Shown piece by piece: positions 4,226 through 29,630 of a stretch of DNA of 64,000 bases. The stretch is from Sphingomonas sp. (GTDB taxonomy: Bacteria; Pseudomonadota; Alphaproteobacteria; Sphingomonadales; Sphingomonadaceae). How positions within the stretch are numbered: position 1 is the stretch's first letter; each line of letters begins with the position of its first letter. The notes beneath the pieces were generated by a model, which searched no databases, was not told the DNA's origin, and saw only the letters and a list, made by a program, of their open reading frames with translations. The stretch covers positions 148,383 to 212,382 of the forward strand of contig NZ_JAGIAM010000006.1 in the NCBI RefSeq assembly GCF_017744835.1, written 5' to 3'. Position numbers and translations under genes: made by a program.

Positions 4226-5239
4226 ATGCGGGACTTTCAAAAGGTGCGTGAATGGCACAATCTCGACCGCGCGCGCTTTCGCTCCGAAATCGCGCCGCTG
4301 AGGAAACCCGCCGTGCTGCGCGGCGTCGCGGCCGATTGGCCCGCGGTCCGCGCGGGGCGTGAATCGCCCGAGGCGCTCTGCGACTATCTGCGGACCTTCG
4401 ACATCGGCAGGCCCACGCCCACCTTCCTCGGGCCGCCCCAGATCAAGGGCAAGTTCTGGTACCGCGAGGACATGCGGGGCTTCAATTATCAGCAGCGCAT
4501 GGCGCCGCCGGCCGAGCTTCTCGCCGCGCTGCTGGCGATGAAGGACGAGGCCGAACCCGCCACCTTCTATGCCGGCGCGATACCCGTCTGCGAGAATTTC
4601 CCCGAGTTCTCGCGCGACAATGCCACCGACATCGTCGGCGACGGTGCCGTCGCGCGGCTGTGGATCGGCAACCGGGCGACCGTCTCGACGCACTTCGACA
4701 TGTCGGAGAATGTCGCGGTCGTCGTCGGCGGGCGCCGCCGCTTCACGCTTTTCCCGCCCGAGCAGGTCCGCAACCTCTATGTCGGTCCGTTCGATTTCAC
4801 TTTCGCCGGGCCGCCGGTCAGCATGGTCGACCTGCGCGAACCCGATCTCGAGCGATATCCGCGCTTCGCCGAGGCGCTCGAGACCGCCGAAACCGCCGAT
4901 CTGGAGCCGGGGGACGCGATCTTCATCCCCTATATGTGGTGGCACCATGTCGAGGCGCTCGATCCGGTCAACGTGCTCGCCAATTACTGGTGGGATCTCA
5001 TCGACAAGCCGTGGCAGGGCTCTCCCTTCAAGGCGCTCGCGCACGCGATCATGACCGTGCGCGACCTTCCGGCGCACGAGCGCCAGATCTGGCGCGCCTG
5101 GTTCGATCACTATGTCTTCGGCGCGGGCCATGACGCCGTCGCGCATCTGCCGCCGCAGGGCCGCGGCGCGCTGGGCGAGATGACGCCGGAGACGGCCAGG
5201 AACGTGAAGGCCTATCTGGTGGACGAGCTCAAGCGATAG
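4226..5239 (+). CDS. JmjC/cupin_8 (Pass1-like) 2OG-Fe(II) dioxygenase
   Basis: RLWIGN, STHFD (HxD), GRRRFTLFPP, LEPGDAIFIPYMWWHHVEAL (distal His). Start taken at ATG 4226. Confidence 0.85.
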   Translation: MRDFQKVREWHNLDRARFRSEIAPLRKPAVLRGVAADWPAVRAGRESPEALCDYLRTFDIGRPTPTFLGPPQIKGKFWYREDMRGFNYQQRMAPPAELLAALLAMKDEAEPATFYAGAIPVCENFPEFSRDNATDIVGDGAVARLWIGNRATVSTHFDMSENVAVVVGGRRRFTLFPPEQVRNLYVGPFDFTFAGPPVSMVDLREPDLERYPRFAEALETAETADLEPGDAIFIPYMWWHHVEALDPVNVLANYWWDLIDKPWQGSPFKALAHAIMTVRDLPAHERQIWRAWFDHYVFGAGHDAVAHLPPQGRGALGEMTPETARNVKAYLVDELKR

Positions 5240-5254
5240 GCGCGCGACGGGCGC

Positions 5255-6766
5255 CTAGGCCTGCGAGCGGCAATGCCGGTCGATGAACTCCTGGTGCGAC
5301 GGCATGCGCGCGGCGCAGGTGCGCATCACCGCGGCGATCCTTTCCATGCGATCTTCCAGCTCGGCGTCGGGCAGGATGTCCGCGATCGGATGATGGCGTT
5401 GCGGCGCCACGCGCTGCCCGTGCAGCACGGCGAGCCAGCTCGGCTCGGTGAACAGCTCGTTGTCGTGGCGGTAAAGCCGGGCGTTCTCCTTGAAGATCGC
5501 GATCCGGTCCGCCAGCGTCTGCGGGATGTCCATCGTCCGGCAATAGTTCCAGTACGGACTGTCGTCGCGCTCGGTCGCCTTGTAGTGGAGGACGATGAAG
5601 TCGCGGATCTGCTCCCATTCCAGCCGCGTCCGACGATTGTAGTAATCGATGTCGTGCTGGTTGAACTTCTTGTCGGGGAAGTTGGTCATCAGCCGCGCGA
5701 TCGCCGACTGCCCGAGATGGATCGAGGTCGATTCGAGCGGCTCGAGAAAGCCTGACGCCAGCCCCAGCGAGACGACGTTCTTGTTCCACGGCTTCCTGCG
5801 GATCCCGGCCTTGAAGCGCAGGAAATTGGGCTCCGAGATCGGCTCGCCCAGGATATCGGCGTTGAGGCTCTCCAGCGCTTGCTCGTCGCTGATGTGCTCG
5901 GAGCAATAGACATGGCCGTTGCCGGTGCGCGACTGCAGCGGGATGTGCCATTGCCACCCGGAGGACTTGGCGGTCGCGCGAGTGAAGGGGACCGGGTCTG
6001 CGATCCTGGTGGAAGCGCGCGCCACTGCGCGGTCGTTGGGAAGCCAGGCGCTCCAGTCGTCGAAGCCGGATTTCAGCGTCTGCTCGATGAGCAGCCCGCG
6101 AAACCCCGAGCAGTCGATGAACAGGTCGCCCGGCACGATCTCGCCGCTTTCGAGCGTCACGCTTTCGACGAAGCCGCTCTCGCCATGCTGCTGCACGCTG
6201 ATGACCTTGCCCTCGGTCCGCACGACGCGATGGGCTTCGGCGAATTGGCGCAGGTAGCGGGCATAGAGCGCGGCATCGAACTGGAACGCATAGGTGATCG
6301 CGCTCAGCGGCGAATTGACCTTGGTGGGGTCGGGGCGCTGGAATTTTCCGGCGCGCGCGGCGAGCGTGGCAAGGCAATAGTCGTCCAGCGGCCGCGCCGT
6401 CGCCGCTTTGGCGTGGCGCAGCCAGAAATGATGGAAGTGCAGGCCCTCCATCTCCTGGCCATAGGTGCCGAAGGGATGGATGTAGCGATCGCCGATCCGT
6501 CCCCAGTTCACGAACTCGATGCCGAGCTTGAAGGTCGCCGAGGTCTTGCGGACGAAGTCGTCCTCGTCGAGCCCCAGCAGCCGGTTGAAATAGAGGATGT
6601 GGGGGATCGTCGCTTCGCCGACTCCGACCGTGCCGATCGCATCGGATTCGATCACGCGGATCCGGATCTCGTCGTCGTGCAGCAGCTTGGACATGGCGGC
6701 CGCCGCCATCCAGCCCGATGTGCCCCCGCCCACGATGACGATGTTCCGGATCTTCAGGTCTTGCAT
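5255..6766 (-). CDS. Flavin-dependent tryptophan-halogenase-family protein (intact motifs)
   Basis: GGGTSG, GEATIP, ATFKLGIEF (catalytic Lys), GWQWHIP, GFLEPLESTS. Confidence 0.93.
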   Translation of the reverse strand: MQDLKIRNIVIVGGGTSGWMAAAAMSKLLHDDEIRIRVIESDAIGTVGVGEATIPHILYFNRLLGLDEDDFVRKTSATFKLGIEFVNWGRIGDRYIHPFGTYGQEMEGLHFHHFWLRHAKAATARPLDDYCLATLAARAGKFQRPDPTKVNSPLSAITYAFQFDAALYARYLRQFAEAHRVVRTEGKVISVQQHGESGFVESVTLESGEIVPGDLFIDCSGFRGLLIEQTLKSGFDDWSAWLPNDRAVARASTRIADPVPFTRATAKSSGWQWHIPLQSRTGNGHVYCSEHISDEQALESLNADILGEPISEPNFLRFKAGIRRKPWNKNVVSLGLASGFLEPLESTSIHLGQSAIARLMTNFPDKKFNQHDIDYYNRRTRLEWEQIRDFIVLHYKATERDDSPYWNYCRTMDIPQTLADRIAIFKENARLYRHDNELFTEPSWLAVLHGQRVAPQRHHPIADILPDAELEDRMERIAAVMRTCAARMPSHQEFIDRHCRSQA

Positions 6767-6791
6767 GTCCGCGGGCTCCGTGGGCGATCGA

Positions 6792-8300
6792 TCAGGCGAC
6801 GGGCGCGGGGCAATAGCGCGCGATGAACTCTGCGTGGGTCGGCATCCGCTCGGCCGCGCCCTCCATCCCCGCGTTCATCGTCGCGAGGCTGTGCAGCACC
6901 TCGTCGGCGGGCAGGGTGGCGACGATCGGATCGTGGGATTTGGGGATGATTCCCTGGCCGATGAGCACCGCCACCCAGCTCGAGGGGGTGAACAGCTCCT
7001 CATCGTAGCGGAAGATCCGCCCGGCCTCGCGAAACAGCTCGATCCGGTGCTGCAGGCTGTCGGGGATGTCCATCGTCCGGCAATGGTTCCAGAAGGGCGT
7101 GTCGTCGCGCCCGGTCGCCGCATAATGGAGGATGACGAAATCGCGCACCTGCTCGAATTCGGTGCGCATGTGCTTGTTGTACTCGGTCCGCACGATCTCG
7201 GGCAGGGTCGCGTCGGGGAAGAGCGATATGAAGCGGCTGATCCCTTCCTGGATCAGATAGATCGAGGTCGATTCGAGCGGCTCGAGGAACCCCGCCGAAA
7301 GGCCGATGGCGATGCAGTTCTTGGTCCAGAATTCCTCGCGGCATCCGGTGGTGAACCGGATCATCCGCGGGGACGCGGTCGCTTCGCCGTCGAGCCCGTC
7401 GAGCAGCATCGCAGTGGCTTCGTCGTCGCTGATGAAGCCGCTGCAATAGATATGGCCGTTGCCGGTGCGCTGCTGGGTCGGAATGCGCCATTGCCATCCC
7501 GCCGTCTTCGCGGTCGATCGCGTGTAGGGAGTCAGCGGCCCTGAATGCGCGCTGGGGACGGCGAGGGCGGTGTCGCAGGGAAGCCAGTGGCTCCAGTCGA
7601 CGAACCCGACGCCCAGCGCCTGCTCGGTCAGCAATGCCCGGAAGCCGGTGCAGTCGAAGAAGAACTCCCCGCCCAAGGTCTCGCCATTGTCGAGCTTCAG
7701 GCCGGTGATGAAGCCCGTCTCGGGTGCCTGCAGCACCGCCTCGATCCTGCCCTCGATCCGCCGCACGCCGCGCGCCTCGGCATAGTTGCGCAGGAAGCGC
7801 GCATAGAGTGCCGCGTCGAAATGATAGGCGTGGCGCAGATGCGACAGCACCGAGCGCGGATTGGGGTCGGGCAGGGCGAACCGGTTCCGCTTCGCGGCGA
7901 CTGCGTTCAGGCTATAGTCCTCGATCGGGCGATCATTGCCCGCGGCGCGGCTGCGCAGCCAATATTGGTGGAAGTCGATGCCGCGCATGTCGACGCCATG
8001 CTGGCCGAACGGATGCACATAGCGCGTGCCCTTGCCCCCCCAGTCGATGAATTCGATGCCGTATTTGAAGGTCGCCTGGGTGGCCTTCATGAACTCGTCT
8101 TCGCGCACGCCCAGGAAGCGGTTGTAGTTGACGATGTCGAGCACGGTCGCCTCGCCGACGCCGATCGTGCCGATCTGGTCGGACTCGACCAGCGTGACCG
8201 ACACGTCCTTGGGCTCGAGCAGACTCGAAAGCGCCGCGGCGGTCATCCATCCGGCCGACCCGCCCCCGACGATGACGATCTCCTTCAGGATCGGCTGCAT
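6792..8300 (-). CDS. Flavin-dependent tryptophan-halogenase-family protein (intact motifs)
   Basis: GGGSAG, GEATV, ATFKYGIEF, GWQWRIP, GFLEPLESTS. Confidence 0.93.
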   Translation of the reverse strand: MQPILKEIVIVGGGSAGWMTAAALSSLLEPKDVSVTLVESDQIGTIGVGEATVLDIVNYNRFLGVREDEFMKATQATFKYGIEFIDWGGKGTRYVHPFGQHGVDMRGIDFHQYWLRSRAAGNDRPIEDYSLNAVAAKRNRFALPDPNPRSVLSHLRHAYHFDAALYARFLRNYAEARGVRRIEGRIEAVLQAPETGFITGLKLDNGETLGGEFFFDCTGFRALLTEQALGVGFVDWSHWLPCDTALAVPSAHSGPLTPYTRSTAKTAGWQWRIPTQQRTGNGHIYCSGFISDDEATAMLLDGLDGEATASPRMIRFTTGCREEFWTKNCIAIGLSAGFLEPLESTSIYLIQEGISRFISLFPDATLPEIVRTEYNKHMRTEFEQVRDFVILHYAATGRDDTPFWNHCRTMDIPDSLQHRIELFREAGRIFRYDEELFTPSSWVAVLIGQGIIPKSHDPIVATLPADEVLHSLATMNAGMEGAAERMPTHAEFIARYCPAPVA

Positions 8301-8303
8301 CGC

Positions 8304-9791
8304 TCAGCGTCGATTCTGGAGCAGATATTGTTTCAGCTGCGCCATGTAATCGGCGTGGCTCGGCAGCGTATCGACCAGCTTCGCGATCTCGCTCTTCATG
8401 TTCGCGAGATACTGCCGGACGCGATCCGCCGGCGCGCGATCGGCGGAGCGGTCGTATCGGCTCGGATGGCGGCCCATCCCGCAATGCAGGATCGTCCAGT
8501 CCTCCATCTGGAACGGCTCGAGGTCATAGGCGACGAGCAGCCCGCGGTCCTCGAACAGGTCGAGCTTGCGGGCGAGCTTCTCGGGAACGGGCTCGGCGCG
8601 CGCGGCTTGCCAATAGGGCGTGTCGGGAAGACCGTCGGTTTCGAACAGCGCGCGCGAGAAGAGCGCGCAATGCTCGTGATCCTCGGCGGAGCGGCGATTG
8701 TACTCGCGGCGCTCCACCGTCATGTCGCTCGAAAAGGGGATCAGCGAAAGCAGGCGCTCGATGTCGCGCTCGAGCAGCATCAGCGGCGCCGGCGTCAGCG
8801 GCTCGACGACACCGGCCGCCTGGCCGATCGCGACGCAATTGCCCGACCATGCCTCGTCGCGCCGGCCCAGCACCGCCTCGCCGGTTCGCTCGGGCTCCGC
8901 GCCGTGCGCCGACAGCGCCTCGGCCTCGGACGCCGGATCGTACACGGTCAGCTGCGCGGTGCAGCCGCGAAGCGGCGTTTCCGAACGCCATCCATAGGCT
9001 TCCGGCGTCACCTCGCGAACCGGCGGGCCGAGCCGGGCCGCGGGTTTCCGCGTCATCGCGGCACGCAGGCGGCGCCCCCCGGTGAAGGCCGAACCGAGGC
9101 TGGACAGCAGCGACGCATCGGGGCCGGTGCAATCGATGAACAGGTCGGCTTCGAGCGACTGGCCGCCCGCCAGGCGAATCGCCGCGATGCCCTGGTCGCC
9201 GCGTACGACTTCCTCCAGCGCGCCGCGTACCCGATGCACGCGCGCGTCGTCGGTGCTCGACTGGAAGAGCCGCGCATAGGTGGCCGGATCGAACTGATAG
9301 CCATATTCCGCGCGGCTGAGCAGTTGCTCGGTCTGGCCCGGTCGCTGCGGCGGGTGCGCGAATACGCCCTTCCGCGCCGCCATGGCCGACACGAGATAGG
9401 GCTCGAGCTCCGTCTCGCCTTGTTGCGCGAGATAGTGGTGGAACAGCACCCCGTCGATCACCGGCAGCGACAAGTGGAAGCACTGGATCCAGGATCGGCT
9501 TCCGCCCGCCCAGCGCGAATAGCGGGTTCCCCAGGAAAAGGCGGCGTCGCCTTCGACAACCAGCCTGGGCTCCTGCAATCCGGTGGTCAGGTTGAACGCA
9601 TAGGCGGAGGGTGCCGAGACGCTGCCGTAGAACAGATCGGTGCCCGCGCTGTCGCCGACGTCGGCCAGCGTGATTCGGATCGCGGGCGGCAGTTGCGCCG
9701 CCATCGCGCAGGCCGTCATCTGGGCCGCCAGCCCGGTGCCGCAGATGACGACGTGCTCGATCGCCGCGGCCGATTCGCTTGGCGTGGTCAT
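8304..9791 (-). CDS. Degenerate tryptophan-halogenase-like protein (probable pseudoenzyme)
   Basis: Full length and collinear with neighbours (YGYQFD, DLFIDCTG, VAIGQAAG, EYNRR) but has GTGLAA, AAFSWG, YGWRSETP and VEPLTPAP in place of the catalytic motifs. ATG 9791 lies 10 nt after the upstream stop. Confidence 0.8.
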   Translation of the reverse strand: MTTPSESAAAIEHVVICGTGLAAQMTACAMAAQLPPAIRITLADVGDSAGTDLFYGSVSAPSAYAFNLTTGLQEPRLVVEGDAAFSWGTRYSRWAGGSRSWIQCFHLSLPVIDGVLFHHYLAQQGETELEPYLVSAMAARKGVFAHPPQRPGQTEQLLSRAEYGYQFDPATYARLFQSSTDDARVHRVRGALEEVVRGDQGIAAIRLAGGQSLEADLFIDCTGPDASLLSSLGSAFTGGRRLRAAMTRKPAARLGPPVREVTPEAYGWRSETPLRGCTAQLTVYDPASEAEALSAHGAEPERTGEAVLGRRDEAWSGNCVAIGQAAGVVEPLTPAPLMLLERDIERLLSLIPFSSDMTVERREYNRRSAEDHEHCALFSRALFETDGLPDTPYWQAARAEPVPEKLARKLDLFEDRGLLVAYDLEPFQMEDWTILHCGMGRHPSRYDRSADRAPADRVRQYLANMKSEIAKLVDTLPSHADYMAQLKQYLLQNRR

Positions 9792-9801
9792 CGCGTTCCC
9801 C

Positions 9802-11370
9802 CTACCGCGCGCCGGCCGCAAGCGCGGCGGTGCCCGAAGCGGCTCCGATCTGCGCGATGAAGGCAGCATGTTCGGGCGTGTTGCGGACCGCCGTGGCGAC
9901 GTCGCGGCGAATCGCCGCAGCGTTCGCGACCAGCGCCTCCTCGGGCACGGCATCGACTCGCCGGTCGTAACCCCGCGGCTGCAGGTTCTGCCCGAGCATC
10001 ACCGCGATCCAGCTTGGCGGCAGGAACAGGCCGAACTCATATTTGATGATATGGCCTCGCGTGGTCCAGGCGGTGATCTTCTCCTGCAGGCTATCGGGCA
10101 ATTCCATGCTGCGGAAGTGCCGCCACATCTCGCTGTCGTCGCGCTGCGTCGCGACATAGTGCAGGAGCAGGAAGTCGCGCACCCGCTCGAAATGCAGGCT
10201 CATGCGGCGGTTGTACTCGTCGATGTCCGAGCGGCGGAAGCTCTTGTCGGGGAAGAGCGTGATCAGTTCGGTGATGCCGTCCTGGATGAGGTGGATCGAC
10301 GTCGATTCGAGCGGCTCGAGGAAGCCCGCCGAAAGGCCGATGGCCACGACGTTCTTGTTCCAGAAGGAACGGCGGCGGCCCGTCGTGAAGTAGAGCCTGC
10401 GGGGGTCGGCCAGCACGGGGCCTTCGAGATTGTCGAGCAGTTGTTGCTGGGCTTCGTCGTCGGAGATGAAGTCGCTGCAATAGACCTGACCGTTGCCGAC
10501 GCGGTGCTGCAGCGGGATGCGCCACTGCCAGCCCCCGGTCCGCGCGGTGGCGCGCGTGTAGGGCGTGAGCGGGCCGCGGGTCTCGCACGGCACCGCGACC
10601 GCGCGGTTGCAAGGGAGCCATTTGCTCCAGTCGTCATAGCCCGAGTGGAGCGCCTGTTCGATGAGCAGGCCGCGAAAGCCCGAGCAGTCGATGAACAGGT
10701 CGGCGCCCACGACTTCGCCCGAATCGAGCGTCACCGATTCGACGAAGCCCGTTTCGGAATCGAGCTTGCTGCCGATGATCTTTCCCTCGGTCCGGACGAC
10801 GCCATTGGCCTCCGAATAGCGCCGGAGGAAGCGCGCGTAGAGCGAGGCGTCGAACTGATAGGCGTAGCCGAAGGTCGATTCGATGCTGGTGAGGTCGGGG
10901 GAGGGGTGGCGGAAGCGATCGTTCTCGGCGGCGATGATCGGGAACGAATATTCGTCGAGCCGCGAGGTGTCGCCCAGCGTCTTCAGCCTCAGCCAGAACT
11001 GGTAGAAGGGGATCTCGTTCACGGTCGGGCCGAAGTCGCCGAACGGATGGATGTAGCGGTCGCCGATCCGCCCCCAGTCGCAGAACTCGATGCCCAGCTT
11101 GAAGGTCGCCTCGGTCGCCTTCATCAACTCCTGCTCACTGATGTTGAGCGTGTTGTTGAATGCCCGAATATGCGGCAACGTCGCCTCACCGACACCGACG
11201 GTCCCGATTTCTTCGGACTCGATAAGCCGAATTGAGATCGGCAACCCCTTGAGTTTGTTGGATAGTGCCGCGGCGGTCATCCAGCCCGCCGTTCCGCCTC
11301 CGATCACCGTAACGCGGCTGATAGCGACACCGCGGTTTCCGTCCTCGCCGCGCAGCGCCTCCTTTACCAC
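9802..11370 (-). CDS. Flavin-dependent tryptophan-halogenase-family protein (intact motifs), first gene of operon
   Basis: GGGTAG, GEATLP, ATFKLGIEF, GWQWRIP, GFLEPLESTS. GTG 11370 follows a GGGAGAGGGG RBS. Confidence 0.92.
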   Translation of the reverse strand: MVKEALRGEDGNRGVAISRVTVIGGGTAGWMTAAALSNKLKGLPISIRLIESEEIGTVGVGEATLPHIRAFNNTLNISEQELMKATEATFKLGIEFCDWGRIGDRYIHPFGDFGPTVNEIPFYQFWLRLKTLGDTSRLDEYSFPIIAAENDRFRHPSPDLTSIESTFGYAYQFDASLYARFLRRYSEANGVVRTEGKIIGSKLDSETGFVESVTLDSGEVVGADLFIDCSGFRGLLIEQALHSGYDDWSKWLPCNRAVAVPCETRGPLTPYTRATARTGGWQWRIPLQHRVGNGQVYCSDFISDDEAQQQLLDNLEGPVLADPRRLYFTTGRRRSFWNKNVVAIGLSAGFLEPLESTSIHLIQDGITELITLFPDKSFRRSDIDEYNRRMSLHFERVRDFLLLHYVATQRDDSEMWRHFRSMELPDSLQEKITAWTTRGHIIKYEFGLFLPPSWIAVMLGQNLQPRGYDRRVDAVPEEALVANAAAIRRDVATAVRNTPEHAAFIAQIGAASGTAALAAGAR

Positions 11371-11479
11371 ATCGCCCCCTCTCCCGTTTCGCGCTGCGCC
11401 AGGCGCACGCGCCGTGTTTTGCTCGACTTTATTTGTCAGAGAAAACAGGCTCCAACAAGGTTGGGAATGTAATGAACCG

Positions 11480-11518
11480 GCAATGTTGCACTGCAAATCA
11501 GCAATGTTGCGCTGCAAA
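11480..11518. repeat. Tandem 18-bp direct repeat GCAATGTTGC(A/G)CTGCAAA, 21-bp period
   Basis: Copies at 11480-11497 and 11501-11518 match 17/18, in the divergent halogenase/TBDR intergenic region. Confidence 0.8.
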
Positions 11519-11597
11519 ACCGAGGGTCGGAGAGCGCATTTGATCAGTTCGTCGCTTGTTTGCCTCGGCGTACCGCAATCTGCTCGCAGATGGCCAC

Positions 11598-11626
11598 TTG
11601 CTAGCAGCTGATTTTCCAAATACCAT
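11598..11626 (+). promoter_or_regulatory. Putative sigma70 promoter of TBDR
   Basis: TTGCTA-N17-TACCAT, upstream of the LacI-type site and the RBS. Confidence 0.4.
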
Positions 11627-11653
11627 TTGTCGGAGAAAAGAGCTGCCAAAATA

Positions 11654-11667
11654 TGGTAGCGGTAACA
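11654..11667. promoter_or_regulatory. LacI-family (XylR-like) operator TGGTAGCGGTAACA
   Basis: 14-bp imperfect palindrome with central CG, 14 nt before the TBDR start. Related sites at 29774, 41326 and 58939. Confidence 0.7.
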
Positions 11668-11681
11668 TGGGAGGATGGGGC

Positions 11682-15065: not shown

Positions 15066-15089
15066 CGGGGGAGCTTTCGGGCTCCCCCG
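15066..15089 (+). terminator. GC-rich hairpin after TBDR (terminator or mRNA-stabilising stem)
   Basis: CGGGGGAGC-TTTCGG-GCTCCCCCG, no strong U-tract. Confidence 0.55.
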
Positions 15090-15154: not shown

Positions 15155-15775
15155 ATGAGGAAGTTTCTTCCGATTGCGGCGACGGCGATGCTGGCCGCCT
15201 GCACGACCACCATGCCGACGTATCAGGCCGCCCGTGCCCCGAATGGCGCTGGCTACTTCTCCGAACCTGTCGATGGCGGCCGCCATGCCGTCAGTTACAC
15301 GGGCAGCAAGGAAATGTCGGCGGCGCAGGTGGCCGAGTTCGCCATGCTGCGCGCGGCTGAAATTACGATTGCCGCGGGCCAGGAATGGTTTGCAGTGCTC
15401 AGTACCGTATCCCGAAAGGTCCAGGCCGGGGATATCAACAACATCGAGGGGCGGTCCGGTTCGGTTCTTTCGACCGGGTCGATCGGAACCGGCGCAGGTG
15501 GCGGCGCGAGCAAAGCGGGTGCCGCTCCCGGCGTCAGCGACGGCTCCGTTCCCACCGGGCCGAGCACGGGCGGCTTCGGCGGTGGGGACGTTCCCTATCA
15601 GGTCCTCGAGCGCTGGGCCCCTCCGCCCGTCTACCAGACAATGCTGGTGATCCAGATGGGTTCCGGAAAACATGTCGCCTTCGAGGGGCTAGAGAAAACT
15701 CCGGAGATCTATTCCGCCCAAGCGGTGATGGACCAGATCCGCGCCAAGACGGCACGAACATCGCCGCCGAGGTGA
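15155..15775 (+). CDS. Lipoprotein, probably CC0125/CC1285 family, with Gly/Ser-rich insertion
   Basis: MRKFLPIAATAMLAAC lipobox; GYFSEPVDGGRHAVSYTG...ALLR-like AMLRAAEITIAAGQEWF pattern. Confidence 0.7.
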   Translation: MRKFLPIAATAMLAACTTTMPTYQAARAPNGAGYFSEPVDGGRHAVSYTGSKEMSAAQVAEFAMLRAAEITIAAGQEWFAVLSTVSRKVQAGDINNIEGRSGSVLSTGSIGTGAGGGASKAGAAPGVSDGSVPTGPSTGGFGGGDVPYQVLERWAPPPVYQTMLVIQMGSGKHVAFEGLEKTPEIYSAQAVMDQIRAKTARTSPPR

Positions 15776-21572: not shown

Positions 21573-21616
21573 CCTCAACTCCCCCTTCGCTCGACATTGT
21601 TTCTCGATGGGCGCCG

Positions 21617-23284
21617 TCAGCTGTCCGCAGGGCTTCCCTCGGTCAGGCCCGAACCAGAAAGGATCAGCGGGATACCGATGTCGTTGCGCAACCCGGGCGG
21701 GAGCCTGACCTCGAGCGCATCGGCTGTCCGCCGAATATCGAGGGGCACAGGAGCTCCCGGCACAGCCACGCGCGCGAGCGCACCGCGACCAACGGGATTG
21801 CCGCTGCCCCACAGGGTAAGGCGGGCGATATCGTCGGCGGGCCAGCCCAAGACGAAGGCGTGAACGTCCTGTCCCTTGCGCGCATAGCGAATGTCCCGCG
21901 CCGTATAAGGCGAATGGGGGCCGCCTTCGCCGAACATTCCGCTGTTCGGCCTGGTCGGCCCCTCGCCATGGATGCGCCATGGCCGCGTGCCGTAGATGGC
22001 CGAACCGTATCGACCCATCCAATCGGCGATCTGCTCGACGATCCGTTCCTCCTTGTCGTCGATCGTGCCGTCGCCGCGTACCGGCACGCTCAGCAGCAGA
22101 TTGCCATTCTTGGAGATCACGTCGCAGAGCGTGTGGATAACCGTGGCGGCGGTCTTGTACCCGTTGTTGGCGTAGAGCTTGCGGTCGTAATGCCAGTTTC
22201 CGATGCAGGTGTCGGTCTGCCACGGGTAGGTTTCGATGCTTCCCTTCCCGCCGCGCTCTACATCCTCGACCAGCCCCATGCGCAGTTCGGCGGGCATCCT
22301 CTTCGCATTGATGACCGCTTCCATCCGGCCATCGTTCCAGCTTGGGCTGGCATTGTAGAAATGCGCGGCGATCTCCAGGCCATAGTGCTCGAGCGGAAGG
22401 CCGGAATTGTCAAAATAGAGAAGATCCGGACGATATTTGTCGATCAGATCCCGGCACCGCAGAAACCATTTGCGTGCAAAGGCAGGATTGGCGCGAGGCA
22501 CGGACTCATCCCATATCAGGTTGGTGCGTTCGCCAATGGCGTTGGCCTCGACCATCGATGGCACGCCGTCGGGCAAGGCCATCGTCCTGCCCGCATAAAG
22601 TTCCTGCGGATCGAGCCCCTCCCACCATTTGCCCTTTCCGTCGGCTTTGGTGAGGCGCGACGCGTCGTACCGCCGGCCGCGCAACGGCCCTTCGGGATCA
22701 TAGCCATAAGCGGTTTGAAACCAGTGCCACGCGTGCGCGCTGTGATTGGACACGCCGAATCTCAGCCCGCGTGCGCGTGCGGCCCGTGCCCAGATCCCGA
22801 CGATGTCTCTCTTCGGGCCTACCCGCGTCGAGTTCCAGCTGTGGTAGGTGGAATCAAAGGCGTCGAAATTGTCATGATGGTTGGCGAGCGCGACGAAATA
22901 TTTGGCCCCGGCACGCGTATATAGATCGACCAGCCGCTCGGGATTCCAGTTTTCGGCTTTCCAGAGATTGTCGATCTCCATGAAGCCGAACTCGGTGGGA
23001 TGCCCATATTTGGCCAGATGCGCTTTGTAGGCATTGGAGCCTTGGCGATACATCTCGCGGGCGTACCAGTCTCCCTCCTCGGGCACGCATTGCGCGCTCC
23101 AATGCGCCCAGATCCCGAACTTGGCATCGCGAAACCAGTCGGGAGTCCGATAACCGGCGGTCAACGAGGGCCAGTCCGGCGTGAACTGCCCGCGGGCCGA
23201 ACCCGCAGCGGCAGCGGCTGGATTCGATGCCGCGGCACCTGCGATCCCCAGACCGCTCAAGGTTTCACGCCTGGTCAGCCTCAT
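21617..23284 (-). CDS. GH29 alpha-L-fucosidase, Tat-exported
   Basis: TRRETL Tat motif; PDWFRDAKFGIWAHW, AGAKYFVALANHHDNF, PDLLYFD, SKNGNLLLSV. Confidence 0.9.
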   Translation of the reverse strand: MRLTRRETLSGLGIAGAAASNPAAAAAGSARGQFTPDWPSLTAGYRTPDWFRDAKFGIWAHWSAQCVPEEGDWYAREMYRQGSNAYKAHLAKYGHPTEFGFMEIDNLWKAENWNPERLVDLYTRAGAKYFVALANHHDNFDAFDSTYHSWNSTRVGPKRDIVGIWARAARARGLRFGVSNHSAHAWHWFQTAYGYDPEGPLRGRRYDASRLTKADGKGKWWEGLDPQELYAGRTMALPDGVPSMVEANAIGERTNLIWDESVPRANPAFARKWFLRCRDLIDKYRPDLLYFDNSGLPLEHYGLEIAAHFYNASPSWNDGRMEAVINAKRMPAELRMGLVEDVERGGKGSIETYPWQTDTCIGNWHYDRKLYANNGYKTAATVIHTLCDVISKNGNLLLSVPVRGDGTIDDKEERIVEQIADWMGRYGSAIYGTRPWRIHGEGPTRPNSGMFGEGGPHSPYTARDIRYARKGQDVHAFVLGWPADDIARLTLWGSGNPVGRGALARVAVPGAPVPLDIRRTADALEVRLPPGLRNDIGIPLILSGSGLTEGSPADS

Positions 23285-23388
23285 TCACCTCTCCTGTCGA
23301 CCGCCGATTGGCTCGTCTTTTGTTATTCAGTCCCTTGCGTCGATCGGTGACAGCGAGACTCCCGCGCCCTGATCCCGCCACGCACTTT

Positions 23389-26004
23389 TCACAGGCCCAC
23401 GACCACCCCTTCGCCGCGATAGGCAATATCGCGTTCGATATCGGGGCTTCCCTGTCGCTTCAGCACCAGGTGCAGGTTCCGCACCCGCGTGCTCGCGTCA
23501 TGGCTCCCTCGCGGCGCCGAAATCGACAAGCGCTTGCGCGTATCGTCCCATGCGAACGCGATGCGGCTGTAGCTGCCGCGTTCGTAATCATAGCTCGTGC
23601 CATCGTCGTCGTAGAGCGTGAAGCGGCCGTCCGCGCCCGCATAGATGCGGAGCTCCAGATCGAGATTGCGGGATCCCGCCGTCGATTGGGCGACCCGCGC
23701 AAGCGGAACGATACTTCCGGCTCTTGCGTGCAGCGGTATTCTGTCGAGCGGCGCGGCAATCTGGTGAACGGTGCCGCCAGCCCGATGCTCGCCGCTCCAG
23801 AAGTCGTACCAGCCGCCCGGCGACTCCGGCAGATAGACCGGCCATTGCTGCACCCCGGGCGCCACGACCGGAGCCACGTGGAATGCCTTGCCGAACATGT
23901 AGCTGTAGCGCTCGTCCAGCGCCCTCTGGTCATGCACGAAGTCCATGACGAGCGGACGCAGCAGGCTCGATCCGTCGCGCGTGATCTCGGCGGCCTCACT
24001 GTAGACATAGGGCAACAGCCGGTAGCGAAGCTCGAGACAGGCGCGCGCCAGCCTCTCCACCTCGGGTCCGTAATGCCAGAATTCCGTGTCGCTCTGATAG
24101 CCGTGGACTCGCTGGAGTGGCAGGAACGTGCCAAACTGCAGCCAGCGGATGAGCCGTTCGTGATAGGCAGGATCGCTGTACTGGCTCTTGCCCGGTCGAA
24201 AGAAGCCGCCTGCGTCGACGGTCCAATAAGGCATTCCCGCGGCGGCGAAATTGAGCCCTCCGGTGATCTGCCGCTTCAATGTCTCCCAGTCGTTGCCGAT
24301 GTCGCCGGACCAGGCGGCGGTGGCGTAGCGCTGCTGCCCCGGGGCGGCGGAGCGGGTAAGCGTGAACACCCTCTGGCGCGGAGCGTCGCGCCGCTGGCCG
24401 TCATAGACTGCGCGCGCAACCTGCAGGGGGAATATGTTGCGGACAGTCTCGCCGGTACCGGCGCTGGTGACCCGCCCCGTCAGATCGTCGTTCTCGGGTT
24501 CGGTCGCATCCTGCCAGAAGCAATCGACCCCGAGCTTGAGTAGCTTGTCGCGTTCGTTCGCCCAATAGAAGGCTGCGGCTTCCGGGTTGAAGAAGTCGAC
24601 CCAGTCGGTATCCGGGATGTAATAGCCGAGCGCGGCGAACCTCTTGCCGAGCTCGCTGGCGCGATCGACCTTCGCCCAGACCGACAGCATCAGCCGCATG
24701 TCCATCGCATGCAGGTCGCGCAGCATTCCGGCCGGATCGGGGTAGAAGTCGCGATCGAATTCCATCGCGTTCCAGCCGTGCTTCCCCCAATATTGCCAGT
24801 CCTGGACGATGACATCGACCGGGAGTCGGCGGCGCCGGAACTCGCGCGCGTTGGCAAGCAGCTCTTCCTGGCTCTTGAAGCGTTCGCGGCAATGAATGTA
24901 GCCGAACGCCCATTTCGGAAGCATCGGCGCCTGTCCCGTGAGCCGACGGTAGGTCGCCACGGTCTCCGCGCCGTCCTTGCCGGCGATCACGACATAATCG
25001 AGCGCTTCGGCCGCGGGAGACCGCAAGACCGTTCGCTCGTCGACCGGCCCGAAATGCAGCCGCGGGGTATCGCGCCCGATTCCAACCGCTTTCACATGAT
25101 GAAGTCCCGGCCCCAGCTCCGCGAAAAAGCCGGTCGTCGGCGGCAGCCACCCATTCGCGAAGTCGACCAGCATTTTCCCGTCGATCTCGACGCTGTGACG
25201 GACCGCCATGCTGCTCCCGACATCGAGCAGGAAGGCGTATCGTCCGCTGGCATCGGTGCGGAATTCGCCTTCGAACACGGCTTCCTGCCGGGCCTCGTCG
25301 CGGCTGCCGGATCCGGTCGTGACCGAGACGTTCCGCTGCGCGCCGCGATCCGCGACTTTCCGAAGCGCCGCGGAATGGGGAAGCGGATTGAGTTCCGTCA
25401 GTCCATAATTGTGCCACAGCAATCCATAGCCGGCGCTGGATACGAAAAATGGCAGGCTGATCTGCGTATTTACCTGGGTAAGGCGACGCGAAAGGCCTTT
25501 CAGATTCAGGAAGCCATCCTGGAATTGGCCGCCACCGAACAGGCGTTCGCTGCGGGGGGCGATGAAGCCTTGCTCGACCGCAACGCCGAGCCCGTTATCC
25601 GACGGCGAAGGTTCCATCCGTCCCAGCGGAGCGCGCAGGATCTCACGGCCGGCCGCATCGGAAAAGCGCAGCTCTGCGGTGTCCGCGTCGAGCCGGCATT
25701 TCAACCGCGCCAGCGAAAGCGCCGTGTTCGCGCCTTCGCGCCGCAACCCGAAGCGAGGGGATGCGTCCGTCCCGACAAGGAATTGGCTGGGCGGCGGGGG
25801 CGTGTCGTCAGGCGAGAAGCGGACCCGGACGGCATTGTCCAGCAAGGGTGTGACCGTAAGAATGCCGCCCTCCAGACGATGCCGAATGGCAGGCGAAGGC
25901 CCGTTCGGGGCCGCGGCCGTCAGCGGAGCGCTCGAAACTACACCGCCGCCAATCGCGGTCCCGGTCAGCTTCAGCAGCTCCCGGCGGTGGATTTCCAGCT
26001 TCAT
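23389..26004 (-). CDS. GH31 alpha-xylosidase-like, Tat-exported, N-terminal-half PA14-like insertion
   Basis: HRRELLK Tat motif at ATG 26004; PVDVIVQDWQYWG, FWQDATEPE, WSGDIG, WTVDAGGF, RVHG, LYDDDGTSYDYE. Confidence 0.88.
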   Translation of the reverse strand: MKLEIHRRELLKLTGTAIGGGVVSSAPLTAAAPNGPSPAIRHRLEGGILTVTPLLDNAVRVRFSPDDTPPPPSQFLVGTDASPRFGLRREGANTALSLARLKCRLDADTAELRFSDAAGREILRAPLGRMEPSPSDNGLGVAVEQGFIAPRSERLFGGGQFQDGFLNLKGLSRRLTQVNTQISLPFFVSSAGYGLLWHNYGLTELNPLPHSAALRKVADRGAQRNVSVTTGSGSRDEARQEAVFEGEFRTDASGRYAFLLDVGSSMAVRHSVEIDGKMLVDFANGWLPPTTGFFAELGPGLHHVKAVGIGRDTPRLHFGPVDERTVLRSPAAEALDYVVIAGKDGAETVATYRRLTGQAPMLPKWAFGYIHCRERFKSQEELLANAREFRRRRLPVDVIVQDWQYWGKHGWNAMEFDRDFYPDPAGMLRDLHAMDMRLMLSVWAKVDRASELGKRFAALGYYIPDTDWVDFFNPEAAAFYWANERDKLLKLGVDCFWQDATEPENDDLTGRVTSAGTGETVRNIFPLQVARAVYDGQRRDAPRQRVFTLTRSAAPGQQRYATAAWSGDIGNDWETLKRQITGGLNFAAAGMPYWTVDAGGFFRPGKSQYSDPAYHERLIRWLQFGTFLPLQRVHGYQSDTEFWHYGPEVERLARACLELRYRLLPYVYSEAAEITRDGSSLLRPLVMDFVHDQRALDERYSYMFGKAFHVAPVVAPGVQQWPVYLPESPGGWYDFWSGEHRAGGTVHQIAAPLDRIPLHARAGSIVPLARVAQSTAGSRNLDLELRIYAGADGRFTLYDDDGTSYDYERGSYSRIAFAWDDTRKRLSISAPRGSHDASTRVRNLHLVLKRQGSPDIERDIAYRGEGVVVGL

Positions 26005-26468: not shown

Positions 26469-27863
26469 ATGAGGCACCGGAGACGCATGCTGCGGATGGC
26501 AATGGGAGCTGCGCTGCTCGGAGGGGTATGGTTCCCGGTCAGCGCGAGCGATCCGATCATCCAGACGCGATTTACCGCGGATCCGGCGCCGATGGTCTTT
26601 GACGGGACGGTCTATCTCTACACGAGTCACGATGAGGACGATGCCGCCGGTTTCAAGATGGTCGACTGGCGCCTCTACACATCGACGGACATGGTGAACT
26701 GGACCGACCGCGGCGCGGTCGCCTCGCTCAAGACCTTCCCCTGGGCAGTGCAATCCAACGATGCCTGGGCGCCGCAGGTGATCGAGCGGGGCGGGAAATT
26801 CTACCTCTATGCGCCGGTCAGCGTGCCCGGAAATCCCAAGAATGTGATCGCGGTCGCGGTGGCGGATCGACCCGAGGGCCCGTTCAGGGACGCTCTGGGC
26901 CATCCGCTGGCCGGCCCGGCTGATGGTTTTTTCGATCCCACCGTGGCGATCGACGACGACGGCGAAGCCTATCTGTACTGGGGAAATCCGAACCTCTGGT
27001 ACGTGAAGCTCAACAAGGACATGATCTCCTATTCGGGCAAAATCGAGAAGATCGAGCGGCGCCCCGCGGACTATCAGGAAGGCCCTTGGTTCTATAAGCA
27101 CCTGGGTAAATATTACATGGCATTCGCGTCGACGTGCTGCCCAGAGGGCATCGGCTATGCCATGAGCGATCGTCCGACCGGCCCTTGGACACACAAGGGC
27201 CAAATTATGGAGCACAACGCGGCGTCCACGGGCAATCATCCGGGCATCATCGACTACAAGGGCGGCACATATCTGTTCGGCTTCGATTACGAGCTGAACT
27301 TCGCACTGACCCCGATCCATCACGAACGGCGTTCGGTCACGGTTGCCAAGTTCGACTATAATCCTGACGGCACGATCCCTGCGTTGGGCTGGTGGAACCG
27401 GACGAGCGCGCCGCAGATCGGGACGCTCGATCCCTATCAGACCGTCGAAGCGGAGACGATCGCGTGGACGTCGCGCATCAAGCGCGATCGGGATCGGCCC
27501 TTTTACTGGGCGCCAGGCGTGACCACGGCGACGAGCGAGGCGGGTGACGTGTATGTCACCCGCATCACGGACCTGAGCTACATCAAAATCGCTGGCGTCG
27601 CGTTCGGTGAGCCTGGCGCCTCACGCTTCAGCGCCAAGGTCGCGAGCGCGGAGGAAAGCGGCTCGATCGAACTTCATCTCGACAAGGCGGACGGGCAACT
27701 CATCGCGAAGCTGCCGGTCGGGGCGACGGGAGGCCTGGACGCATGGCGGACGATAACGACCCAGGTCTCCGGCGCGACGGGCACGCACGATCTGTTCATG
27801 GTTTTTCGAGGCAAGGGTGACCAACCCTTGTTCAATTTCGATCAATGGCAATTCGCGAGATGA
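26469..27863 (+). CDS. GH43 xylosidase/arabinofuranosidase with C-terminal CBM6-like module
   Basis: FTADPAPMV, DAWAPQV, FFDPTVAIDDDG, QEGPW, GNHPGII; C-terminal VEAET...IELHLD...HDLFMVF. Confidence 0.88.
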   Translation: MRHRRRMLRMAMGAALLGGVWFPVSASDPIIQTRFTADPAPMVFDGTVYLYTSHDEDDAAGFKMVDWRLYTSTDMVNWTDRGAVASLKTFPWAVQSNDAWAPQVIERGGKFYLYAPVSVPGNPKNVIAVAVADRPEGPFRDALGHPLAGPADGFFDPTVAIDDDGEAYLYWGNPNLWYVKLNKDMISYSGKIEKIERRPADYQEGPWFYKHLGKYYMAFASTCCPEGIGYAMSDRPTGPWTHKGQIMEHNAASTGNHPGIIDYKGGTYLFGFDYELNFALTPIHHERRSVTVAKFDYNPDGTIPALGWWNRTSAPQIGTLDPYQTVEAETIAWTSRIKRDRDRPFYWAPGVTTATSEAGDVYVTRITDLSYIKIAGVAFGEPGASRFSAKVASAEESGSIELHLDKADGQLIAKLPVGATGGLDAWRTITTQVSGATGTHDLFMVFRGKGDQPLFNFDQWQFAR

Positions 27864-28074
27864 TCCCCGCCTGTCCTTCAGTTGGAACTCCGGTTCGATC
27901 CAAGAAAAGGGGCGGGCCTCTTAAGGGAAGCGGACATTGTGCTATCGCGGCTCCGAAGCGCCGCAGTGCCGTACCCGGGCAGGGTGGAAAGCCCAGGAGC
28001 ATTGCCGTACGCGGGATGTCGGGAAAAGAAGGCGGAGCCCGTTCGGATCAAATTCCGCCAGGGGAGGGGATTTC

Positions 28075-28872
28075 GTGAACGCCGATCAGCTATCCGTGAA
28101 CGTCGGCTCCGTGCTGTTCTATCGTCAGCTCGAGCCGTTTTCCGAAGAGCATCATGGCGGGCTTGGAGTCTCGCTGAGCGCGAATCCCTATGCCTTTCTG
28201 GCGGATACCTATGCGGTCCCCATCACGGCCGACGAGTTCGAGCACGCCGCGCTATGCTATCCCATCGTATTCGCGAGCGAATCGAAGATTCCCGTGGCAC
28301 TGATGGGCCCATATCCGGGTGTGAACGTCTTCGTTGCGCAGGACGGCGAGATGGATCCGGAAGCTTATGTGCCGGCGTTCGCCCGGCGCTATCCCTTTCT
28401 TCCGATCGCGACGGACGGGCCAAGGGATCCCTTGGGGGGCAGCGGGCGCATGGTTCTCTGCATAGATCGCGCAGCCAAGACCATCTCGGATCGACCGGAA
28501 ATTCCCTTCTTCGAACACGGTCAGCACTCGCGCTTCACCAGGGACGCCATTCAGACGTGCAATGAATTCGAGAACCTCGCGCGGCGAACCAGGGATCTCA
28601 TTCGAATCCTCGAACAGCACGACTTGTTCGAACGCATGGAGTTGCGGGTGCCGCGCGCCAATCCCGACGGGACGGAAGCGCCCTCGCAAAAGATCGAGGA
28701 CTGCCTTCGGATATCCGAGCGGAAGCTCAACGCTCTGCCCGACGACGTCTACATCAAGTTGCGGAACATCGGTGTGCCGGGCCTTGCCTACGCGCATCTT
28801 CTTTCCCTGGGTCTCTGGCCCAAGCTCTTGTCCCGAGCTGCGCGCATGAACGCACAGGCCCCGGCGTACTGA
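28075..28872 (+). CDS. SapC-family protein
   Basis: LFYRQLEP, VPITADEF...CYPIVF, PVALMG, YVPAFARRYPF, ISERKLNALPDD, AYAHLLSL. GTG 28075 follows GGGGAGGGG. Confidence 0.85.
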   Translation: MNADQLSVNVGSVLFYRQLEPFSEEHHGGLGVSLSANPYAFLADTYAVPITADEFEHAALCYPIVFASESKIPVALMGPYPGVNVFVAQDGEMDPEAYVPAFARRYPFLPIATDGPRDPLGGSGRMVLCIDRAAKTISDRPEIPFFEHGQHSRFTRDAIQTCNEFENLARRTRDLIRILEQHDLFERMELRVPRANPDGTEAPSQKIEDCLRISERKLNALPDDVYIKLRNIGVPGLAYAHLLSLGLWPKLLSRAARMNAQAPAY

Positions 28873-28886
28873 GGCGGAGGTTAGGC

Positions 28887-29630
28887 GTGTCCTCGCTCGA
28901 GCTCGATGCGCACCCCGATCTTTGCATTCGCGTCGAGCACGTCGGCGCGGAACGGACGCCGCTTTTGATCATCGACAATCTGTTGGATCGGCCGGACGAT
29001 TTCGTCACCTACGCGGCTACGGAGTGCACGCTTTCCGCGCCGACTGACATGTATCCGGGGCTGCGCGCGCCGGCCCCCCAATCCTATGTCGAGGTGTTGC
29101 GCAAGGCGCTGACCCGTGCGATCAACGAGGCATACGGGCTTCCCGATCTCGAGTTGTGCAGCGCGATCAGCTACCTTTGCGTGGTTACCGCTAGACCGGG
29201 GGATCTCGATCCGGTTCAGTGCATGCCGCACATCGACGGTACGGCCGCCAATGATTTTTCGACCGTCCATTACCTGTGCTCGCCGAAATATTCAGGCACC
29301 TCGCTCTATCGCCACCGCCGAACGGGATATGAACTGATCCCCGAGTTCCGCCATGAGCGTTACCGAGCGGTGCTGGAGGAGGAGCTGCGGGAAAAGCCGT
29401 GGACGACCCGTGGCTATATCAATGGCGACACCGAGATGTTCGCGCGGATCGCATCGACGGAAGTCGCCTTCAACCGCCTGGTTCTCTACCCCTCCAATGC
29501 GCTTCACTCAGCCGACATCGGGCCGGACTTCGCATTCGATCCGGACCCGAGGCAGGGCCGCTTTTCGGTGAATTCCCGCATCCAGATGAGGTCACGAGGT
29601 TTCAAGCCAAGGCCGTGGTTCCAAGGATAG
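28887..29630 (+). CDS. DUF6445-like protein, 2OG-Fe(II) oxygenase fold
   Basis: PLLIIDNLL, YPGLRAP, MPHIDG (HxD), VHYL, GTSLYRHR, FNRLVLYPSNALHSA, GRF. Confidence 0.75.
   Translation: MSSLELDAHPDLCIRVEHVGAERTPLLIIDNLLDRPDDFVTYAATECTLSAPTDMYPGLRAPAPQSYVEVLRKALTRAINEAYGLPDLELCSAISYLCVVTARPGDLDPVQCMPHIDGTAANDFSTVHYLCSPKYSGTSLYRHRRTGYELIPEFRHERYRAVLEEELREKPWTTRGYINGDTEMFARIASTEVAFNRLVLYPSNALHSADIGPDFAFDPDPRQGRFSVNSRIQMRSRGFKPRPWFQG

Follow-up and report, generated by a model that had tools for sequence, protein, structure and literature searches.

The closest described system is the gene neighbourhood reported by Iyer, Abhiman, de Souza and Aravind in 2010 (NAR 38:5261), in which a JOR/JmjC gene is accompanied by one to three tryptophan halogenases, a TonB receptor and SapC, and sometimes by a second, classical 2-oxoglutarate (2OG) dioxygenase, the Syn9-gp52-like protein (PMC2938197). 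It was found in Alpha- and Gammaproteobacteria, the halogenase lysine was stated to be conserved, and the set was predicted to synthesize a halogenated siderophore-like compound (PMC2938197). In the literature searched, this is the only work found to treat the SapC–halogenase neighbourhood (PMC2938197); a Colwellia metatranscriptome paper noted its expression and nothing more. The window analysed here, a stretch of 64,000 nucleotides from Sphingomonas sp. (assembly GCF_017744835.1, contig NZ_JAGIAM010000006.1, positions 148,383 to 212,382), harbors a Sphingomonas copy of this neighbourhood, built around a TonB-dependent receptor (TBDR) and four halogenase genes, hal. A sequence-only reading of the window had proposed an uncharacterised system that modifies proteins or converts aromatic substituents released from plant wall oligosaccharides. 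The neighbourhood is in fact a published one, and it is still without an assigned function, as that reading had said. What is new here is a subfamily of halogenases lacking the catalytic lysine and tied to multi-halogenase arrays, a signature of the receptor subfamily, a lipoprotein gene, and evidence that speaks against the siderophore reading as well as the wall-aromatic one.

The conserved core of the module is a TBDR gene that diverges from four halogenase genes, which in turn converge on a Cupin_8 gene (TBDR <> HalD-HalC-HalB-HalA >< Cupin_8; coordinates in Table 1). Three orthologues of this block were found. In a JGI metagenome contig (L120) it is adjoined by the same GH43 gene together with GH10, GH3 and major facilitator superfamily (MFS) genes, with identities from 72% (TBDR) to 87% (HalD); in Sphingomonas piscis (CP049869, 596756-618240; L122) its flanks hold GDP-mannose/capsule genes and a resistance-nodulation-division (RND) efflux system (MFP, pump and OEP), and no glycosidases surround it; the third belongs to a Steroidobacteraceae metagenome-assembled genome (MAG; L123). 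The 3.92-Mb genome carries 16 PF04820 (halogenase) genes in 10 loci, 4 SapC, 4 Cupin_8 and 3 DUF6445 genes. Thirteen of the 16 halogenase genes have a TBDR-like open reading frame (ORF) no more than 5 kb away, against 9.6% of all ORFs, which bears out the proposed association of halogenase with TBDR, the Pass1-like (JmjC) gene and SapC as one beyond chance; every SapC, Cupin_8 and DUF6445 copy of the genome stands at most 22 kb from a halogenase. TBDRs adjoin nine of the ten halogenase loci, and the tenth is part of a type I secretion operon. Beyond this genome, 80 DUF6445 loci were scanned in GTDB genomes that encode the family: 57 hold a halogenase, 50 a TBDR, 28 Cupin_8 and 22 SapC. The recurring order is TBDR-SapC-Cupin_8-Hal-DUF6445 in Gammaproteobacteria and Cupin_8/DUF6445/TBDR <> Hal x4 in Sphingomonadales. 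One locus of the present genome (G000:C6:59565-67147) ties the module to a second, unrelated TBDR class, the Oar type.

The module accompanies one TBDR subfamily generically, regardless of what the receptor imports, and is not specific for hemicellulose. The same set stands by GH13, GH97, GH3/LacI, GH39, GH88, pectin-lyase-like and phosphoesterase genes, and in S. piscis by no glycosidase at all; therefore, wall aromatics cannot be the general explanation, and the link to hemicellulose drawn in the sequence-only reading is not supported. A broader form of that idea is that the TBDR takes up, along with the oligosaccharide, a small aromatic or indolic molecule, a modified sugar or a glycoside whose aglycone is aromatic, and that this cargo is converted, detoxified or demethylated in the cytoplasm by the halogenases and 2OG oxygenases. 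Catabolic loci usually pair an importer with cytoplasmic enzymes, the window holds a hemicellulose locus with transporters of the MFS and GntP families close by, and the L120 block is surrounded by GH10, GH43 and MFS genes; in addition, the predicted fold of DUF6445 resembles small-molecule oxygenases, several of which act on sugar moieties, and free indole is halogenated by BrvH-clade enzymes (PMC5945002, PMC7754283). Against this processing of cargo, a common aromatic cargo is implausible across so many types of glycosidase and phosphoesterase loci, the S. piscis block adjoins neither a glycosidase nor an inner-membrane importer, and halogenation is not known as a detoxification or catabolic step, so that such a role is considered unlikely.

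The receptor of the window matches TIGR01782 (TonB-Xanth-Caul, carbohydrate-type) with 563.9 bits over model positions 2-866 (cut-off 310); it starts at GTG 11682, and its signal peptide ends in ...AAAAHA/QD. For comparison, 65 TIGR01782 TBDRs with a halogenase within a few kb were set against 28 without one, the latter taken from the genome of the window and three congeners. On the resulting tree the label of halogenase linkage changes 5 times; 500 shuffles of the labels gave 24.1 changes on average and never fewer than 17. A signature of five residues, R153/W449/D460/W1038/R1112 (numbered from GTG 11682), located in plug and barrel-strand contexts, is present in 82-91% of the linked and 18-25% of the unlinked receptors, and the unlinked bearers form a small sister clade. 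Judged by tree and signature, the halogenase-linked TBDRs form a subfamily of their own; genomes of the order without a halogenase hold 0-1 TIGR01782 receptors. Directly downstream, 108 nt after the TBDR stop, lies a lipoprotein gene that had been overlooked in the sequence-only reading. Its product starts MRKFLPIAATAMLAAC..., with the lipobox LAAC and a Gly-rich middle, and by tblastn it is conserved right after the TBDR orthogroup, with 61-65% identity in L120 and L121 and 45% in the Steroidobacteraceae MAG L123. The lipoprotein could be a partner or 'lid' of the receptor, or possibly a substrate.

HalD and the TBDR diverge across 311 bp. The shared divergent promoter that had been proposed for them stands as a shared intergenic region, and it is as an intergenic region only that it can be presented; sigma-70 and terminator consensus scans between 4 and 16 kb gave nothing above shuffle expectation. 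HalD starts at GTG 11370, with the Shine-Dalgarno sequence GGGAGAGGGGG. The 16-mer ATGGTAsCGrTAACAT, a LacI-operator-like pseudo-palindrome, occurs three times in the window, where none is expected, and one of its copies stands just upstream of the TBDR (Table 1). On the hal side, a tandem 18-mer, GCAATGTTGCrCTGCAAA (11480-11497 and 11501-11518), has no other exact copy in the genome and may be a candidate site for a separate regulator of the hal operon. After the TBDR gene there is a GC hairpin (15066-15089). This separation, with the operator-like site on the TBDR side and the 18-mer on the other, would fit enzymes that have no direct link to the receptor, being directed to an endogenous cytoplasmic target (a regulator, tRNA or the indole pool), sharing its sugar control or hitch-hiking with it by co-duplication. 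That linkage tracks TBDR phylogeny fits co-duplication as well, and TYW5, a tRNA hydroxylase, is among the solved relatives of Cupin_8. However, the adjacency persists across Alpha- and Gammaproteobacteria in several gene orders and extends to the Oar-type receptor with its halogenase and DUF6445, and the sister clade that bears the signature without halogenases indicates that loss is possible, so that retention elsewhere suggests selection. Enzymes independent of the receptor are thus regarded as very unlikely.

HalA, HalB and HalD carry the motifs GxGxxG, GVGEAT, HPFG, GWxWxIP and EPLESTS and the catalytic Lys; in HalA these read GGGTSG, K80, HPFG, GWQWHIP and EPLESTS, the last with Ser in place of Gly in the halide motif. 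The solved structures nearest to HalA are 9luq, BrvH (6frl) and Xcc4156 (6y1w), which align over the full length with E values of 1e-147 to 1e-161 (1e-147 to 1e-149 for BrvH and Xcc4156), compared with weaker matches of 1e-74 to 1e-77 for PrnA and RebH. The latter alignments stop at residue ~421-427 of 503, before the C-terminal Trp-binding region, and the YY..E..F Trp-binding region with its lid, which is the feature of tryptophan 7-halogenases (PrnA/RebH), is not found in HalA. Membership of the BrvH/Xanthomonas clade, as well as the presence of HPFG and absence of the Trp-binding lid region in all three enzymes, had been read from the sequence before, and the E values, the motif check and the ends of the alignments agree with it. 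The group C features are found in each of them, namely BrvH/Xcc4156 as nearest relatives, GxGxxG, WxWxIP, Lys plus Glu, and a Trp2 motif of HPFG type, and by these residues they are predicted to be catalytically equipped BrvH-type (group C) halogenases. Flavin-dependent halogenases of group C do without the Trp3 and Trp4 motifs, and one of them, MibH, acts on a peptide (PMC8269204). Crystallography of the BrvH/Xcc clade, which is described as having no substrate lid, has revealed an open active site with a solvent-exposed Lys (PMC7336383), and its published members halogenate indole, not free tryptophan, with a preference for Br- (PMC5945002, PMC7754283). HalA groups with the position-4 genes of other arrays, HalB is 78% identical to the position-3 gene of L120, and HalD is 87% and 76% identical to the position-1 gene of L120 and to Steroidobacteraceae L123, respectively.

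HalC, the second gene from the TBDR, is different. It retains the dinucleotide-binding GTGLAA, the DxxG motif and many scaffold residues, but the catalytic Lys is replaced by Ser (AAFSWG), HPFG by QCFH, GWxWxIP by GWRSETP, and EPLESTS, which holds the Glu and the halide site, by EPLTPAP, so that of the group C features it lacks Lys, Glu and WxWxIP. In nine other arrays of four genes, the gene second from the TBDR is defective in the same way; these nine copies, HalC and the second of three genes in a Cellvibrionaceae array (L058) form a clade of 11 members (support 0.979), and positions 1 and 4 of the arrays likewise cluster by position. A search of 5.8 billion proteins gave 462 HalC relatives at E ≤ 1e-30, and the signature was read in the best 120 of them, which are 54-100% identical to HalC, 472-507 aa long and share the new signature; in the Lys column these 120 carry S (113), C (4) or A (3), never Lys. 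Of 16 arrays with at least three halogenases, 14 include a Lys-less member; so does one of four two-halogenase arrays, itself a fragmented larger array, and none of 46 singletons is Lys-less. A decaying pseudogene, as would be suggested by the non-intact fourth halogenase of the sequence-only reading, was rejected on account of the intact ORF and of the full length and shared signature of all of the best 120 relatives; HalC is instead a member of a conserved subfamily. Its fixed position 2, monophyly, shared signature and restriction to arrays therefore point to a dependent partner subunit, or else to a neo-functionalised flavoprotein, rather than to decay. No paper describing Lys-less halogenase homologues was found in the literature searched.

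A second, independent Lys-less clade (K->R or N; support 0.983) was observed in uncultured Gammaproteobacteria (L054, L055, L059 and L061), in arrays of three to four genes, where it takes the place nearest the TBDR. In a three-gene array of a congener, the member nearest HalC (G014:C1:1750238-1751719) has an internal TAA stop and may be a real pseudogene. The supply of reduced flavin (FADH2) is a further part of the puzzle. A PF01613 flavin reductase (RebF/PrnF/HpaC-type) is absent from the whole genome, which encodes 15 halogenases with catalytic equipment, and is present in 13 of 14 control genomes. For this reason a flavin-handling role of HalC is worth considering, and we infer that HalC may serve in this way.

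The protein encoded opposite HalA, with 15 nt between the stop codons, is predicted to be a JmjC-type 2OG-Fe(II) oxygenase of the Cupin_8 family. Its nearest solved relatives are JMJD5, FIH, TYW5 and JMJD7 (E 1e-16 to 1e-20, with alignments of ~120 catalytic-core residues), the HxD...H triad is intact and aligns to JMJD5 H321/D323/H400, and its orthologues in the same position are 84% (L120) and 72% (S. piscis, L122) identical. SapC, named from a gene upstream of the Campylobacter fetus S-layer type I exporter (PMC2938197, ref. 62), has no sequence match in the PDB, and its AlphaFold2 (AF2) model (pLDDT, the model confidence, 80.6) has no Foldseek PDB match below E 0.3. SapC as a cupin or 2OG oxygenase was rejected, as there is no HxD...H triad among its invariant residues and no structural match. 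DUF6445, on the other hand, keeps P-H115-x-D117, H207 and R225 invariant in 53 sequences, and its AF2 model (pLDDT 94.3) has the fold of an Fe(II)/2OG dioxygenase, with Foldseek matches to PolD, HygX, AndA, AviO1 and KanJ at probability 1.0 and modest TM scores of 0.38-0.47. The model thus identifies DUF6445 as a putative dioxygenase of the classical Fe(II)/2OG kind, which probably corresponds to the second, Syn9-gp52-like hydroxylase of Iyer 2010. Contigs of MAGs labelled Lysobacterales (L040-L042) match the SapC-DUF6445 pair with 72-79% identity in DNA and 76-81% in protein, compared with ~40% protein identity between the window DUF6445 and those of other Sphingomonads, and no synteny with these MAGs was found beyond the pair itself. 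Taken together, this suggests lateral transfer of the pair, which is encoded apart from the core block and would be mobile in its own right.

Genes of this high-GC window were called by third-position GC (GC3), annotated by Pfam, and their starts were refined from Shine-Dalgarno context. All elements named in the sequence-only reading were recovered by Pfam, including the convergence of the four-gene hal operon with the JmjC/Cupin_8 gene and the location of SapC and DUF6445 inside the glycosidase locus, after GH43+CBM6. The hal operon is compact, with gaps of 10 (HalD-HalC), 3 (HalC-HalB) and 25 nt (HalB-HalA), and DUF6445 starts 14 nt after the SapC stop. The segment 18651-29630 (GH31-GH29-GH31-GH43-SapC-DUF6445) has a GC3 of 0.73-0.78, against 0.85-0.9 in the rest of the window. 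None of HalA-D, Cupin_8, SapC and DUF6445 has a signal peptide; therefore, all seven proteins should work in the cytoplasm, where the enzymes would be expected to need O2 and, depending on the enzyme, FADH2 with a halide or Fe(II) with 2-oxoglutarate.

Pfam scans of the GC3-supported genes of the window found no non-ribosomal peptide synthetase (NRPS), polyketide synthase (PKS), ATP-grasp, aminotransferase, NRPS-independent siderophore synthetase or other backbone gene, and neither prnB-D nor a flavin reductase, in agreement with the sequence-only reading. This bears on the published prediction (PMC2938197), by which a small halogenated and hydroxylated compound derived from an amino acid would be made, secreted and re-imported through the TBDR like a siderophore. 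Three distinct intact halogenases in a fixed order could halogenate successively, an RND efflux system follows the S. piscis block, and the common barrel and plug residues of the linked TBDRs, whatever their glycosidase neighbours, could mean a common ligand. However, besides the missing backbone genes, the TBDR is of the carbohydrate type TIGR01782 and not of a siderophore type, the loci bear LacI-type regulators, operators and glycosidases, and with ten paralogous loci in a genome, ten such metabolites would have to be assumed. The carbohydrate-type receptor, the LacI-type regulators and the lack of backbone genes therefore disfavour the siderophore prediction, and biosynthesis of such a metabolite is held to be quite unlikely.

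The reading that is tentatively preferred, although it falls short of being probable, is that the module tailors an exported protein linked to the receptor. The substrate would be a macromolecule tied to the receptor, such as the TBDR precursor itself, its partner lipoprotein or another exported protein, and it would be modified in the cytoplasm, before export. Trp residues would be halogenated, and side chains of the Asn/Asp/Arg/Lys type hydroxylated; HalC would act as a non-halogenating partner subunit, serving as a scaffold, as an adaptor for the substrate or in the handling of flavin. A macromolecular substrate is suggested because the nearest solved relatives of Cupin_8, whose triad is intact, are protein or tRNA hydroxylases, and because group C halogenases lack the Trp-binding motifs, have an open site and include the peptide precedent of MibH. 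It is further suggested by the absence of backbone-biosynthesis genes from the window, by the pairing of every TBDR with paralogous enzymes of its own, with no single set shared across the genome, and by the naming of SapC after a gene beside the S-layer type I exporter of C. fetus. Finally, the sole TBDR-less copy sits in a type I secretion operon beside a 10,535-aa ORF; its halogenase has an intact Lys, and the start of the halogenase gene overlaps the HlyD stop by 4 bp.

Several observations weigh against a tailored receptor or partner. To our knowledge, there is no report of a TBDR that is halogenated or hydroxylated. The HlyD orthologues in relatives do not adjoin halogenases, and no HlyD is found in the 80 DUF6445 loci of GTDB genomes; a general connection with type I secretion was therefore rejected, and the operon, which is not conserved in congeners, is retained as a hint from a single genome. 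The Trp-rich TBDR had been named among the nearest candidate substrates. Its Trp content (2.5%) is indeed the highest in the genome. However, in a set of 46 TBDRs linked to halogenases, more halogenase genes do not go with a higher Trp content, and for want of such a dose relation this feature was rejected as a clue. The window hal array is 55-60% identical to other Sphingomonad arrays and the paired TBDR 33%, so that tight co-evolution of enzymes and substrate is not evident. The five-residue signature, at what look like strand or plug 'lock' positions, may simply mark the subfamily and is not taken to indicate sites of modification. The closest folds to the DUF6445 model are small-molecule oxygenases, several of them acting on sugar-containing antibiotics (HygX, AviO1, KanJ), and BrvH-clade halogenases act on free indole in vitro (PMC5945002, PMC7754283).

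A far more specific version of the tailoring reading is judged highly improbable: the four Hal paralogues would form a hetero-oligomeric machine with the Lys-less HalC as an obligate subunit that does not halogenate but acts as adaptor or handles flavin, and this machine together with JmjC, SapC and DUF6445 would halogenate and hydroxylate the TBDR precursor or the lipoprotein before export. If true, this machine would produce the first naturally halogenated outer-membrane proteins, and it would explain why each receptor of the subfamily has its own enzyme set. Whichever explanation applies, the cassette is among the most widespread 'known unknowns' of glycan-degrading Alpha- and Gammaproteobacteria (Xanthomonas, Caulobacter, Sphingomonas and marine Alteromonas-like bacteria), and most genes annotated as 'tryptophan halogenase' in such genomes sit in it. 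The question of a natural substrate also concerns the BrvH/Xcc halogenases, which are studied as biocatalysts. The present analysis narrows the question, as the module tracks a TBDR subfamily and not a glycan, the siderophore and wall-aromatic readings are both weakened, and the disarmed paralogue of the multi-halogenase arrays belongs in any reconstitution.

The window contains at least nine glycosidase genes. Apart from the genes of Table 1, it encodes LysR, an aldo-keto reductase, MFS, a two-component pair, GH115, a GFO oxidoreductase, GntP, UvrB, MutS, malic enzyme and MetE.

Table 1. Features of the window, with operator-like sites and the other halogenase loci of the genome (<>, divergent; ><, convergent)
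Feature	Position	Strand	Basis or remark
GH51-like arabinofuranosidase	26-1768	+	Pfam
GH43 + GH43_C2	1876-3981	-	Pfam
Cupin_8/JmjC-type 2OG-Fe(II) oxygenase, putative ('Pass1-like')	4226-5239	+	Pfam Cupin_8 E 1.4e-63
HalA, array position 4, BrvH-type halogenase, intact residues	5255-6766	-	PF04820 E 6e-191
HalB, array position 3, BrvH-type halogenase, intact motifs	6792-8300	-	PF04820 E 1.2e-190
HalC, array position 2, Lys-less halogenase paralogue	8304-9791	-	PF04820 E 5e-66
HalD, array position 1 (TBDR-adjacent), BrvH-type halogenase, intact	9802-11370	-	PF04820 E 3.6e-189
Divergent intergenic region, 311 bp	11371-11681	.	Between HalD and TBDR
16-mer copy	11653-11668		14 nt upstream of TBDR start
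TBDR, plug + barrel, signal peptide	11682-15047	+	Pfam; TIGR01782
206-aa lipoprotein, no Pfam family	15155-15775	+	tblastn conservation
GH3 + PA14	15935-18613	+	Pfam
GH31 + PA14	18651-~21800	-	Pfam
GH29 fucosidase	21617-23284	-	Pfam
GH31	23389-26004	-	Pfam
GH43 + CBM6	26469-27863	+	Pfam
SapC family	28075-28872	+	PF07277 E 2.5e-50
DUF6445	28887-29630	+	PF20043 E 8e-68
16-mer copy	29773-29788		Upstream of 29.8-kb operon (29828-30604 secreted protein-GH43)
Secreted protein without family	29828-30604	+	Pfam scan
GH43 + RicinB	30613-32061	+	Pfam
16-mer copy	58938-58953		Upstream of malic-enzyme gene
Locus GH3 <> TBDR-Hal-SapC-Cupin_8-Hal-LacI			
Locus TBDR-SapC-Cupin_8-Hal			Beside pectin-lyase-like protein
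Locus TBDR-Hal-Hal-GH39			
Locus GH13-Hal-TBDR <> LacI			
Locus GH3-GH9-GH43-Hal-Hal <> TBDR-Cupin_8-GH67			
Locus TBDR...GH88-DUF4450-Hal			
Locus GH97-Hal-(Oar-type TBDR)-DUF6445	G000:C6:59565-67147 (L037)		TBDR = CarboxypepD_reg + OMP_b-brl_4
Locus TBDR-Hal			Beside phosphoesterase
Locus without TBDR: 10,535-aa ORF / DUF6445 / halogenase / HlyD / ABC exporter	G000:C1:44928-84233 (L029, L039)		

Compared with the neighbourhood of Iyer 2010, the locus contains all five gene families, with the JmjC triad intact and the Rossmann motif and Lys present in three of the four halogenases, and its distribution is likewise sporadic and looks mobile. It differs in having four halogenases instead of one to three, one of them Lys-less, in the position of SapC and the 2OG-Fe(II) dioxygenase, which lie ~16.5 kb from HalD behind five glycosidase genes, and in its receptor, which is of the carbohydrate type TIGR01782 and is placed in a glycosidase locus. 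From a siderophore/NRPS-type cluster it departs further, as both the backbone enzymes and a siderophore-type receptor were looked for in the window and not found. With BrvH of Brevundimonas BAL3 (6frl) and Xcc4156, Xcc-b100-1333 and -4345 of Xanthomonas campestris (6y1w), the halogenases share the motifs and the lack of the C-terminal Trp-binding motif; here, however, the genes form a fixed-order four-gene array with a predicted non-halogenating paralogue. Genomic context is absent from the papers on BrvH and the Xcc enzymes, in which the word 'TonB' does not occur. The carbohydrate utilization (CUT) loci of Xanthomonas and Caulobacter (Blanvillain et al. 2007, PMC1790865) resemble the locus in their TIGR01782 TBDR, glycosidases, transporters and LacI-operator-like site, and in the many paralogous loci per genome, but halogenases are mentioned nowhere in the main text of that paper (PMC1790865). 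The CUT model does not account for the enzyme module, which is an addition to it.

We know of no precedent for the halogenation of an exported protein. Modification in the cytoplasm before secretion is itself established, as HMW1C glycosylates the HMW1 adhesin and HlyC acylates HlyA. By analogy, the enzymes of the window may be likened to these two, which are cytoplasmic tailoring enzymes encoded beside a large exported protein or its exporter, and one halogenase and DUF6445 copy of the genome lies within a type I secretion operon.

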